Shown piece after piece: positions 12,780 through 15,512 of a stretch of 48,012 nt of DNA. The notes under the pieces are model-generated. The model searched no databases and had not been told where the DNA came from. It saw only the letters and a list, made by a program, of their open reading frames with translations. Source of the stretch: Eubacteriales bacterium (GTDB taxonomy: Bacteria > Bacillota > Clostridia > Oscillospirales > QAKW01); NCBI GenBank assembly GCA_045546815.1, contig JAZQDN010000133.1:1-48012 (forward strand). Reading direction: 5' to 3'. Position 1 is the stretch's first letter. Every line of letters starts with the position of its first letter. The translations under genes and the position numbers were made by a program.

Positions 12780-14446
12780 TATTTAATAAGTCCTTTTCTT
12801 TCAAGTATTGAACAGATCTTTTCGCCCTTTGGCAGTAGCAGCACGTCCTCACGCTTTATTGCCTTGAACACAAAAATAAATACGATATAAAGCACTGCCG
12901 CAATCGCAATTCCGATAAGTGCGCACAGCCTTATTGATATGTTGCCGAACAGCACATATTTATATAAAGCATATGACAGTCCGACGCCAAGGAGCGAGCA
13001 TATGATCGGCTTTAGGAAAACCGATACAAAATCCGTTTTATAGCCTTGCTTTTTATAAAGCATGATCAGATTGATTATCAGAGCGGAGCCGTAGCAAAGC
13101 AGCGTGCCGAAGGGTGCTCCGTTTATGCGGATGCCCGGCTGTGACACAAGCGTGTAGTTTGTAATAATCTTCAAAACAGCACCTGTCGCCATTGCGATAA
13201 GCGGAATGTTAACGTGTCCGCAGCCCTGCAAAAACAGGCTTGTCGGGTACACCATCGCAACAAGGTAAATGCCAAGTGCTAAAATATGAAACGGCTGTGT
13301 TGCTATTATTATTTCGTTAGGATTGCTTGCAAATAGCAGGTTGAATATCGGATAAGCAAAAAACGAAAGGCCGATTGCGCAGGGTGCCGCGATAAGCGAT
13401 ACGATACGCATTGACGAGTTCATATTCTGGTATGCTTCGTTATACTTTTTCTTTGCAAAAAGTTCGGAAATGAACGGAAGCACCGAAATACCTATTGTTT
13501 GCGTAATTGTCGGCGGAAGGTTGAAAAGGGAGAAGCAGCAGCCTGAATATGCACCGTAAACAGAGTTTGCGTGCATAACAAAATCTGCACCCGCCGCCTT
13601 CAAAGCCTCGACCTCCGCTTCGGTATATGACGGCAGCCCTGAGTTGATAAGCGCCTGCCTTACGCTTATCATATCAATGGTTGATGTAATGCTCATGATC
13701 GATGAGCTGAGAGTTATCGGTATTGCAATTTTTAAAATCGCTTTAAAAAGAACGCTGTTCGAACGGTTTTCAATGGGGTTTACAACGTCGGTTTTTATCG
13801 GGCCCTTACCAAAGTAAAATCGTATAAACATAAACGATGTCGACACAAACGAACCGATGGTAACACCGAGAATTGCGCCGCACGCGAGCACCGAACTTTG
13901 TGTGTGCCCTTTTGCAATAAGTATAATGACCGCCGCAAGCCCGAGTAGCTTTGATGCCGCTTCGAGTATCTGATAAATCGCGGTCGGTGCCATGTCCTTG
14001 TAGCCCTGGAAAAAGCCCTTGAACGACGAACCGAGAGATACAAAAAATATTGCAGGAGCAATTGCGATTATCGAAACGCCGGCACCCGGGGCATCAACAA
14101 AATTTGCAAACCACTTTGAAAAAAATATGAGAACCAGCATGCCGATAAGACCGACCACCGCAAAGATTTTAAGCGATAAAGACAGTATCTTTTTTGGCTC
14201 GTGTATTCTGCCGACCGCGTTTGATTCGCTGATAAGCTTTGCAAGTGCCACGGGAATGCCGCCTGTTGAAATAACAAACAGCAGTGAATATACCTGATAT
14301 GCAGCGTCATAATACCCCTGACCGTCGCCGCCGATGAGGTTAAACAGCGGTATTTTGTAGATAAATCCTATTGCTTTTACAATAACGAGTGCCGCGGTCA
14401 AAACCATTGCACCGTTTAAAAAATTCTTTTTTGTTTTGTCTGACAT
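12779..14446 (-). CDS. MOP-superfamily flippase (YabM/SpoVB/MurJ-like polysaccharide biosynthesis protein)
   Basis: FLNGAMVL, YKIPL, STGGIPVA.AKLISE, GFFQG..DM.PTA; ~14 TM; upstream of mazG like yabM. Confidence 0.9.
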   Translation of the reverse strand: MSDKTKKNFLNGAMVLTAALVIVKAIGFIYKIPLFNLIGGDGQGYYDAAYQVYSLLFVISTGGIPVALAKLISESNAVGRIHEPKKILSLSLKIFAVVGLIGMLVLIFFSKWFANFVDAPGAGVSIIAIAPAIFFVSLGSSFKGFFQGYKDMAPTAIYQILEAASKLLGLAAVIILIAKGHTQSSVLACGAILGVTIGSFVSTSFMFIRFYFGKGPIKTDVVNPIENRSNSVLFKAILKIAIPITLSSSIMSITSTIDMISVRQALINSGLPSYTEAEVEALKAAGADFVMHANSVYGAYSGCCFSLFNLPPTITQTIGISVLPFISELFAKKKYNEAYQNMNSSMRIVSLIAAPCAIGLSFFAYPIFNLLFASNPNEIIIATQPFHILALGIYLVAMVYPTSLFLQGCGHVNIPLIAMATGAVLKIITNYTLVSQPGIRINGAPFGTLLCYGSALIINLIMLYKKQGYKTDFVSVFLKPIICSLLGVGLSYALYKYVLFGNISIRLCALIGIAIAAVLYIVFIFVFKAIKREDVLLLPKGEKICSILERKGLIK

Positions 14447-14459
14447 AAAATTTTAGTCC

Positions 14460-14816
14460 TTACAGTTTAGTGCCGCAATTTTTGCAGTATGTGTCACTTG
14501 CACCTGCGTGCTTTGAGCAGACGGGGCAGGTCTTTTTGAACTTCGACATTTCGGTGTTGACCTCTTTTAGTCTGAACTTGAGCACGTCGATTTTTTCCAT
14601 ACACTGTGCAATCGGACTTTCGTCGTCGCTCTGCTTCTTTTTAATATCGTATGTCAGCTTGCCGAGCTCGCAGAAGGTGCGCTCGATTTCACTTTTAAGC
14701 GTTGACGCCTTGTATTCGAGCTTAACGTAATCCTTTGCATCGACAGCCTTGTCAGTCACATATTTACCGGCTTTTTCCATCGAATCAATAATATCGTCAA
14801 TTATTGCCATTGTCAC
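14460..14816 (-). CDS. Coiled-coil protein with C-terminal double zinc-ribbon
   Basis: CPVC...YCKNCGTKL; AAGGAG RBS; own promoter upstream. Confidence 0.8.
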   Translation of the reverse strand: MTMAIIDDIIDSMEKAGKYVTDKAVDAKDYVKLEYKASTLKSEIERTFCELGKLTYDIKKKQSDDESPIAQCMEKIDVLKFRLKEVNTEMSKFKKTCPVCSKHAGASDTYCKNCGTKL

Positions 14817-14841
14817 TTCTCCTTAAAATATTATAAGATAT

Positions 14842-14870
14842 ATTATATCACAGGTTATTGCATTTTACAA
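14842..14870 (-). promoter_or_regulatory. Sigma-A promoter for the zinc-ribbon/yabM/mazG operon
   Basis: TTGTAA-N17-TATAAT with TG on the minus strand. Confidence 0.7.
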
Positions 14871-14871
14871 C

Positions 14872-14913
14872 AAAAAGTAAAACGGCACAGCTGTTGTGCC
14901 GTGCCGTCTTACT
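14872..14913 (-). terminator. Terminator shared by tadA and the putative sRNA
   Basis: AGUAAGACGGCACGGC-ACAACA-GCUGUGCCGUUUUACU-UUUU; two G-U pairs form only on the minus strand. Confidence 0.85.
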
Positions 14914-14963
14914 GTTTTGCATTAAAAATAGGAGGGGGATTGAGATAAGTTTTATCTTATCTT
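14872..14963 (-). ncRNA. Putative C-rich trans-acting small RNA (~92 nt)
   Basis: Own extended -10 (TGGTATACT, 14978-14970), 5' hairpin AGAUAAG-AUAAAA-CUUAUCU, unpaired AAUCCCCCUCCU, 16-bp terminator; no ORF. Confidence 0.6.
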
Positions 14964-14969
14964 GTAAAC

Positions 14970-15023
14970 AGTATACCACGCCATAGCGCAAAAGTTGTTA
15001 TCAAACTTTTAACTTTTTGTTAA
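14970..15023 (-). promoter_or_regulatory. Promoter with OmpR/PhoB-type tandem boxes
   Basis: Minus strand TTAACA-N5-TTAAAA-N5-ATAACA-N20-TATACT (preceded by TGG); no consensus -35. Confidence 0.55.
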
Positions 15024-15477
15024 AAGCGGGACCTTTCCGCAGACGCGCAAAAAAATCCTTTATGATCTGCGAGCACTCGCCCTGCAAAACGCCAAAGGTG
15101 ACAAGCGGCTTGTGGTTTACGGGCAGTGCCATTACGTCAACTATTCCGCCCATCGCGCCCGCTTTTTTATCGGCTGTACCGATTACCACGCGGTCGATGC
15201 GCGAATTTATTATCGTGCCTGCGCACATAATGCACGGCTCGAGTGTCACGTACAGCGTGCACCCTGTCAGCCGCCAGGAGCCCAGCTTTTTGCACGCTTT
15301 TTCAATCGCGATGTGCTCTGCGTGTGCTACGGCACTCTGTGCGGTTTCGCGTCTGTTGTATCCGCGTGCAATAATTTTGCCGTCCTTCACTATGACAGCA
15401 CCGACAGGCACTTCCCCAAGAGCCTCCGCTCTTTTTGCCTGAATAAGTGCTTTTTTCATAAAATAAATATCGTCCAT
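15001..15477 (-). CDS. tadA: tRNA adenosine(34) deaminase
   Basis: GEVPVGAVIV, HAE, TLEPCIMC, DFFARLR. Confidence 0.95.
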   Translation of the reverse strand: MDDIYFMKKALIQAKRAEALGEVPVGAVIVKDGKIIARGYNRRETAQSAVAHAEHIAIEKACKKLGSWRLTGCTLYVTLEPCIMCAGTIINSRIDRVVIGTADKKAGAMGGIVDVMALPVNHKPLVTFGVLQGECSQIIKDFFARLRKGPAFNKKLKV

Positions 15478-15483
15478 AAAAAT

Positions 15484-15512
15484 ATTATATGCTAAATTAA
15501 GCCAAAGGTCAA
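15484..15512 (-). promoter_or_regulatory. Sigma-A promoter of tadA (probably leaderless transcript)
   Basis: TTGACC-N17-TATAAT; the ATG begins 7 nt after the -10. Confidence 0.7.

Follow-up and report, generated by a model that had tools for sequence, protein, structure and literature searches.

We looked at a 48,012-nt stretch of DNA (the window) from the 1.89-Mb assembly of an Eubacteriales bacterium, and within it at the 190-nt gap between the stop codon of tadA, the gene for tRNA adenosine(34) deaminase (TGA, 15003-15001), and the next ATG (14810). This gap holds a whole candidate small RNA (sRNA) element, whose coordinates are given below as window positions on the minus strand. Read in its own direction, the element begins with an extended -10, TGgTATACT (14978-14970), in which T14978 and G14977 stand one nucleotide ahead of the hexamer TATACT (14975-14970). 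Judged from the promoter geometry, transcription would start at 14963-14965. Then come a 5' hairpin of 7 bp with a 6-nt loop (AGAUAAG, 14962-14956, with CUUAUCU, 14949-14943) and an unpaired C-rich tract of 24 nt, CAAUCCCCCUCCUAUUUUUAAUGC (14942-14919), with the anti-Shine-Dalgarno (anti-SD) motif CCUCC within its C5 run. An A-tract, an intrinsic terminator and a U-tract, found by a terminator scan, complete the element (14918-14868). The terminator stem (14913-14876) has 16 pairs, 8 of them G-C, around a loop of 6, and is followed by UUUUUGUUG. It includes the wobble pairs G14900-U14889 and G14908-U14881, which the other strand would read as C-A mismatches, so that the strand of the RNA is fixed as the minus strand. 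An earlier note on this DNA had described the extended -10, the 5' hairpin, the C-rich tract and the 16-bp terminator, with the G-U pairs as the guide to orientation, and each of them was found where it had been placed. When folded with ViennaRNA, positions 14965-14868 gave the same arrangement of hairpin, unpaired tract and terminator, and CAAUCCCCCUCCUAUUUUUAAUGC was left unpaired in both the minimum free energy and the centroid structures. The fold reached -37.2 kcal/mol, compared to -12.67 +/- 2.78 for 200 shuffled sequences (z = -8.8), none of which was as stable. From the sequence we infer an RNA of about 95 nt, its start and its expression included, that would be transcribed from the minus strand between approximately 14963 and 14870.

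The comparative evidence comes from 36 distinct promoter-plus-RNA sequences. The 5' hairpin, 7 to 17 bp long, forms in all of them despite being present as 23 distinct sequences, and at one of its pairs the genera differ by a compensatory change from A-U to G-C (AU in 13, GC in 21 and GU in 2 sequences). The unpaired tract ATCCCCCTCCTATTTTTAATGC, whose conservation had been named in the earlier note as a point on which the small RNA would stand or fall, is identical in 30/36 sequences, gains or loses a single T in 5/36 and is truncated in the remaining one (G005), which also has a different terminator. For comparison, the flanking proteins share 60-82% identity for tadA and 25-56% for the downstream open reading frame (ORF). 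Across the model-fitted alignment of the 36 sequences, 98.7% of the pair cells were paired, compared to 74.1 +/- 1.0% in 500 shuffles and 38-65% when the partners were slid against each other. Changes on both sides were found for 15 of the 19 pairs, with 166 double-change cells against 44.7 +/- 6.5 expected from the shuffles. The terminator stem alone accounts for 13 of 14 pairs with changes on both sides, with 99.2% of its cells paired, and it repeats the strand signal, with GU in 20/36 sequences at one pair and UG in 11/36 at another. Compensatory changes were also seen in 13/19 pairs of a plain MAFFT alignment of 19 sequences. The loops of the homologues differ in length by 1-2 nt, and one sequence carries a 20-nt insertion. 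As read from these sequences, the pattern is typical of a structured RNA whose single-stranded part is functional and which has a -10 element to itself, and is unlike that of a passive untranslated region (UTR). In four loci of the second genus, the terminator hairpin was seen repeated almost exactly about 50-90 nt downstream (L019, 1386-1436; L014, L015 and L016), where the copy follows another small GC hairpin; it could be a tandem terminator or the remnant of a duplication.

The promoter region is conserved in a fixed geometry. The TGn ahead of the -10 hexamer is present in all 36 distinct sequences, and the hexamer itself is TATACT in 35/36 and TATAAT in the last one. In 35/36 sequences the 5' hairpin begins 5-7 nt past the hexamer, meaning that the RNA would start at the base of the hairpin. 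Upstream lie three phased A/T-rich boxes, which in the window are TTAACA (15023-15018), TTAAAA (15012-15007) and ATAACA (15001-14996), separated each time by 5 nt, on the minus strand. The second and third (TTnAnA-N5-nTAA[CT]A) were found in 36/36 sequences and all three in 24/36. In every sequence exactly 20 nt separate the end of the TAA[CT]A box from the -10 hexamer, while the spacer of about 11 nt between the two holds about 0 bits of information. In the genus of the window the boxes overlap the last codons of tadA and its TGA stop; in the second genus they are mostly located in non-coding DNA, 25-118 nt past the tadA stop. A search of the window's own genome with the boxes, as for a regulon, gave no convincing second promoter. 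Sites of known regulators were considered as a match for the boxes and dropped, since spacing or sequence did not fit.

To define the distribution of the RNA, we used three kinds of searches. A DNA search with a 151-nt query was positive in 19 of 41 genomes, including 11/11 of the window's genus and 7/7 of a second genus, and found nothing in 6 genomes of a third genus or in 16 genomes of other families. The best-kept part was the hairpin with the C-tract, at 85-90% identity. A covariance model built from 19 sequences was then positive in 42 of 49 genomes of the family, namely 11/11 in the window's genus, 28/30 in the second and 2/7, weakly, in the third. In the window's own genome it detected one strong copy, at 101.8 bits; the next matches reached 25.5 bits, for the antisense of the terminator, and 23.1 bits. 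No paralogue was found in this genome by BLAST or with the covariance model, and a BLAST match on contig C147 (L020) was discarded as a paralogue because it fails to align. When the model was run over 151 genomes of the order, strong matches were restricted to the family of the window, with weaker ones elsewhere. Finally, the exact motif ATCCCCCTCCTATTTT-N0-2-AATGC was looked for in one genome per species over 185,579 species. It was present in 38 stretches, all in metagenome-assembled genomes (MAGs) titled uncultured Clostridia, Eubacteriales or Clostridiales, and obtained from goat, deer, rabbit and human gut among other sources. Altogether, within what was searched, the RNA family is limited to uncultured gut Clostridia of a single order, in which a few families carry it.

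Diverged homologues were found at the edge of this distribution. In the third genus, 2 of 5 genomes inspected carry one right after tadA, with the core UCCCCCUCCUAUUUUUAUG and a C-rich hairpin loop, and one of them (G021) also has a CUCCCCC terminator loop. The other three have an ordinary terminator or a different gene after tadA, and are without the RNA. In three genomes of another family (f25), inspection showed that tadA is followed by a homologue. The core ACUCCCCCUCCUAU, preceded by a TATACT -10, is kept in two of them, and the third (G141) has the variant core ACUCCUCCCCACUCCUAUUG. In a further family (f19), two genomes carry a similar AAUCCCCCUCCUUUUUUGAAUG RNA located away from tadA. 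The diverged homologues of the third genus and of f25 keep UCCCCCUCCUAU, have a changed 3' part of the tract, and in some cases add C-rich loops. Among the weak matches of the model, G043:C14, G016:C68 and G001:C91 were rejected as paralogues, being antisense images of ordinary ribosome-binding sites beside terminators. Three others, G010:C1:139055-139159, G056:C122:7172-7272 and G001:C39:1107-1233, resemble C-rich small RNAs located before terminators. Their unpaired tracts are, in the same order, AAUCCCCUUAUUAUUUUU plus a UUCCCCC loop, GAACCCCCUCCGUUUUUU and GAAUCCCUAUUUUUUAUUGC, and they may be paralogues each restricted to a single genome.

The gene upstream, tadA (15001-15477, minus strand), was identified with NCBIfam NF008113 (164.3 bits for a cut-off of 150) and with the Pfam domains MafB19-deam and dCMP_cyt_deam_1. 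It lies directly upstream of the RNA in 35 of 36 representative loci, the exception being G020. Since the RNA follows tadA in f25 as well and in the third genus, where the flanking genes differ, the conserved association is that of tadA followed by the RNA. No terminator was found between the tadA stop and the RNA promoter, either in the window or in the 23 loci of the second genus examined. The RNA sequence is therefore also the 3'-UTR of tadA, with a terminator common to both, and reading it as an independent gene and reading it as tadA 3'-UTR are not mutually exclusive. In the window's genus tadA itself seems to be leaderless: in the window (15475-15512, minus strand) the ATG, at 15477, follows a TTGACC-17-TATAAT promoter whose last position is 15484, with no Shine-Dalgarno (SD) sequence in between. 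The other loci of this genus are alike, and tadA of the second genus has an AGGAG-type SD.

Downstream of the RNA, the same strand holds a gene for a 116-aa protein (14460-14810), an ORF that matches no Pfam or NCBIfam family. The N-terminal part of the protein resembles a coiled coil, and its C-terminal part carries a CPxC...CxxC zinc ribbon. A promoter scan assigned to this gene its own promoter past the RNA terminator (TTGTAA-17-TATAAT with TG, 14870-14842). It is followed by a gene for a SpoVB/MurJ-like flippase. Both genes are found downstream in 33 of the 36 representative loci, and the sequence of the remaining three ends at most 630 nt past the RNA. In the window's genus and in the second genus, the 116-aa ORF always stands between the RNA and the flippase gene, at a distance from the RNA that goes from less than 100 nt to about 1 kb. 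Neither gene was found nearby in the third genus.

In agreement with the earlier note, which could place the RNA in no known family, no family of Rfam 15 reaches its gathering score in the window. At E<=10 over positions 14400-15400 there were 10 weak matches, none of them RsaE and the best at 20.5 bits for a threshold of 37; those on the element itself scored 12.4-18.1 bits for thresholds of 85-110. In Bacillus, the gene for the signal recognition particle (SRP) RNA (4.5S/scRNA) sits after tadA, and an RNA gene directly downstream of tadA is what the element shares with it. The long hairpin differs here, as it is a perfect helix with a U-tract, that is to say a terminator. A degenerate SRP RNA was also rejected since the genome has its own SRP RNA, RF00169, at contig C28:1588-1687 (77.7 bits, over the cut-off). 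This RNA is located away from the tadA-RNA locus in the five genomes of five in which it was placed, the window's own and G004, G007, G012 and G013. In the literature, the motif strings occurred in no relevant paper among the matches listed. The main text of Fremin & Bhatt 2021 (PMC8040213), a large survey of structured RNAs of the gut, has no tadA, deaminase, anti-Shine or C-rich, and its supplementary tables could hold the motif unnamed.

The layout of the RNA resembles that of two groups of Firmicutes sRNAs, as had been noticed before. The first is the C-rich box class of Staphylococcus and Bacillus. As described in the sections of Geissmann et al. 2009 (PMC2790875) that deal with it, RNAs of this class have a 5' hairpin and a terminator, bind to SD sequences and carry, where they are most conserved, a UCCC motif left unpaired. 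According to the same sections, the C-rich motif of RsaE was shown to bind SD sequences and to block the initiation complex, and the class is Hfq-independent. This anatomy is found here: AAUCCCCCUCCU is unpaired and invariant, and covariation was seen in both the hairpin and the terminator. A search for Hfq (PF17209) was negative in 5 genomes of the family, four of which are at least 98% complete, and positive in control genomes, which fits the Hfq-independent Firmicutes class. With RsaE/RoxS, as far as described there, the RNA shares a 5' hairpin, a stable terminator and an unpaired UCCC-containing motif in its most conserved part. It differs in having no sequence or structure match in Rfam 15, in its tadA-linked context and in its host, since RsaE/RoxS belong to Bacillales and this RNA to uncultured gut Clostridia. 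Moreover, in the window's genus and the second genus it has one long linear C-tract (C5-U-CC-U), whereas RsaE, as depicted in those sections, has two or three short UCCC loops. The homologues of the third genus have several C-rich regions, as their hairpin and, in one of them, the terminator too bear additional C-rich loops.

The second group is that of the cia-dependent small RNAs (csRNAs) of Streptococcus. In the part of Marx et al. 2010 (PMC3091779) that presents them, two stem-loops flank an unpaired and conserved anti-SD region, which is complementary to both SD and AUG, and the promoter carries the CiaR repeat NTTAAG-N5-TTTAAG 10 nt before the -10. The layout, the similar size and a strong -10 with phased upstream repeats spaced by 5 nt are what the RNA has in common with the csRNAs as presented there. 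In contrast, the CiaR repeat is absent: the conserved boxes read TTnAnA-N5-nTAACA, their end being 20 nt upstream of the -10, and the nucleotides 10-30 upstream of the -10 vary across all 36 sequences. The unpaired tract is also without an anti-start-codon CAU, and there is a single copy per genome here instead of several csRNA paralogues. The RNA family and its linkage to tadA are new, while the kind of C-rich sRNA is already known.

We consider it probable that the element is a stand-alone small RNA gene of the Firmicutes C-rich box, anti-SD kind, with its own promoter and with mRNA pairing in trans. The proposal of the earlier note, an unannotated small RNA and not merely the 3'-UTR of tadA, is supported by the conservation of promoter, hairpin, tract and terminator, which two genera share and which recur, diverged, outside these genera. 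The mechanism we propose is the following. Transcription would start from a sigma-A-type extended -10 promoter devoid of a -35, with the phased boxes upstream, and would end at the terminator of tadA. The 5' hairpin may protect the 5' end of the RNA. The 24-nt unpaired tract would present its CCCCCUCCU core, an extended anti-SD, ahead of the long terminator hairpin, and CCCCCUCCU(AUUUUU) would pair in trans with G-rich, A-flanked ribosome-binding sites of mRNAs. This pairing would block 30S binding and lead to translational repression without Hfq, as for RsaE/RoxS and the csRNAs.

Several results weigh against a stand-alone sRNA acting in this way. The RNA promoter has no -35 hexamer, and the consensus promoter scan of the locus did not pick it. 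The covariation counts, 15 of 19 pairs included, come from a model-fitted alignment of related sequences. The 23 invariant unpaired nucleotides exceed what a short seed needs, so that the partner could be a protein or one long RNA. No target emerged. Duplex energies of the tract were calculated for 2,027 start regions of the window's own genome, taken from a home-made ORF call, and compared with those of ten control seeds in which the flanks were shuffled and only CCUCCU was kept. The best duplex was at -25.9 and the 20th best at -19.4 kcal/mol, compared to -24.0 to -33.8 and -18.8 to -21.1 kcal/mol for the control seeds. The start regions of the neighbouring genes were at the background duplex level. 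The statement of the earlier note that the tract is the exact complement of a strong ribosome-binding site holds formally, but that complement, AGGAGGGGG, occurs once in the 1.89-Mb assembly, on the antisense strand of the gene itself, and points to no identified target. The best conserved candidate, the gene for a 512-aa protein (C128), had a mean of -20.2 kcal/mol over 30 orthologues, 70% of them at or below -17; it was rejected, as it is equally complementary in genomes of the third genus that are without the RNA. Its complementarity is conserved because a strong SD overlaps the end of the upstream ORF.

The 512-aa protein looks secreted and has weak tetratricopeptide repeat hits. The last codons of the gene upstream of it overlap its start region (G000:C128:3940-3985, L123-L152), and this region, GGTATTAAGGGTTAAGGAGGGG, is almost invariant in DNA across three genera. 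Two other candidates were tried and rejected: the 116-aa gene, whose ribosome-binding region is at background (mean -9.8 kcal/mol), and the gene for a 271-aa membrane protein (C102), whose site is not conserved (mean -13.7 kcal/mol over 12 orthologues). When the 17-mer complement was looked for with up to 2 mismatches in 49 genomes, the matches other than self were coding by eye or sporadic. The 17-mer AAAAAGAGCAGGGGGAT, which recurs in seven genomes of the second genus (L183-L188, L169), was discarded as a target: it sits within conserved sequence that no start codon follows and that was judged coding by eye, a judgement in which frames were not checked.

One lead came from sigma factors of the extracytoplasmic function (ECF) type, recognized by Sigma70_r2/r4 and TIGR02937 (71.6 bits for a cut-off of 42.9). 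The 14 ECF-like paralogues of the window's own genome had a mean duplex energy of -17.1 kcal/mol compared to -10.1 for other genes, represented by a sample of 450. This corresponds to a z-score of -2.09, while the ten control seeds gave -1.25 +/- 0.23. Among the 20 start regions with a G5 run, 4 belong to ECF-like paralogues. Over 29 sigma start regions taken family-wide, the tract outperforms the control seeds in 22 (-15.7 versus -13.1). All of these figures are inflated by paralogy, by the relatedness of the genomes and by generally strong SDs. The sigma subfamily, as defined by this query, is present in 11/11 genomes of the window's genus, 28/30 of the second genus and 0/7 of the third. In the window's own genome, 12 matches to one ECF-type sigma factor were seen, clustered on C134 (8.4-23.5 kb) and C131 (14.9-19.1 kb), while most relatives hold 1-3 copies of it. 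Many of the clustered genes have unusual ribosome-binding sites with a G5 run and share an upstream GTTTT...CATTATAT motif. A doubtful extension of the sRNA proposal is that the RNA would act as a lineage-wide brake on this expanded ECF sigma family, its C5 run out-competing the ribosomal anti-SD at the G5-run sites (..GUGAAAGGGGGA..). As the RNA and the essential tadA have a transcript end in common, the amount of the RNA would moreover depend on tadA transcription.

Two of the alternatives keep a functional RNA. The sRNA could be real and mainly processed from the tadA 3'-UTR, with the conserved upstream elements serving something else. The absence of a terminator between the two means that tadA transcripts must run through the RNA, the tadA-RNA link is the most conserved feature of the context (35 of 36 loci plus the homologues of the third genus and f25), and the lack of a -35 hexamer points the same way. 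However, the TGn-TATA(C/A)T element is invariant in 36/36 sequences and the hairpin follows it by a constant 5-7 nt in 35/36, while the spacer upstream is variable. This is what a working -10 predicts and is hard to explain otherwise, especially in the second genus where the region is non-coding, and we regard processing as the main origin of the RNA as unlikely. The same degree of belief goes to an RNA that binds or titrates a protein, or mimics the C/U-rich 3' tail of 16S rRNA, without specific pairing to an mRNA. CCUCC is the motif of the ribosomal anti-SD, and the core of the tract contains it; a run of 23 contiguous invariant unpaired nucleotides is longer than typical seeds, and no mRNA target stands out against the control seeds. 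On the other hand, no candidate protein is linked to the RNA, and the flanking genes of the third genus differ from those of the other two. In the diverged homologues the C-run is retained, the 3' part of the tract differs and C-rich loops are added, as would be seen in a multi-seed pairing sRNA.

The others leave less room. That the region is a plain tadA 3'-UTR and terminator with no function of its own is highly improbable, even though it follows the tadA stop immediately and no other terminator serves tadA. Such tails would not stay unchanged to the letter in 30/36 sequences next to proteins of 25-82% identity, and a 5' hairpin that covaries or a -10 of fixed geometry is unexpected of a UTR; the plain state is what the three genomes of the third genus with an ordinary terminator or another gene after tadA display. 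We give still less credit to a cis-acting leader or attenuator of the 116-aa gene, which would account for the RNA being upstream of that gene on the same strand in 33 of the 36 representative loci. That gene has its own promoter after the terminator, lies at a variable distance from the RNA and is not nearby in the third-genus homologues; its start region is not complementary to the tract, at the mean of -9.8 kcal/mol given above. Furthermore, with terminator arms that vary freely and a C-tract that does not change, a conserved antiterminator pairing between the two is impossible. As for a short protein-coding gene, the earlier note had stated that neither strand has an ORF. Taken literally this does not hold, as the mechanical ORF list holds two TTG frames, one of 47 aa (14848-14991, minus strand) and one of 42 aa (14858-14986, plus strand). 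Neither is conserved, since the homologues differ by loop insertions and deletions, the 1-2-nt differences and the 20-nt insertion, whose lengths are not divisible by three. The changes in the stems are in compensatory pairs instead of at synonymous sites, and neither frame has an SD-plus-start arrangement, so that the chance of a coding gene is negligible.

To our knowledge, almost nothing is known on riboregulation in uncultured gut Clostridia, which make up much of the animal and human gut communities, and the C-rich anti-SD sRNAs that we know of are from Bacillales and streptococci. The new RNA family is well supported by 36 distinct sequences and their heavy covariation; its seed is invariant over an unusual length, and it is present in organisms in which no Hfq was detected. 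The covariance model is ready for the annotation of MAGs and gives a defined RNA to look for in gut metatranscriptomes. If the RNA acts as proposed, the C-rich-seed strategy would extend to another class of Firmicutes.

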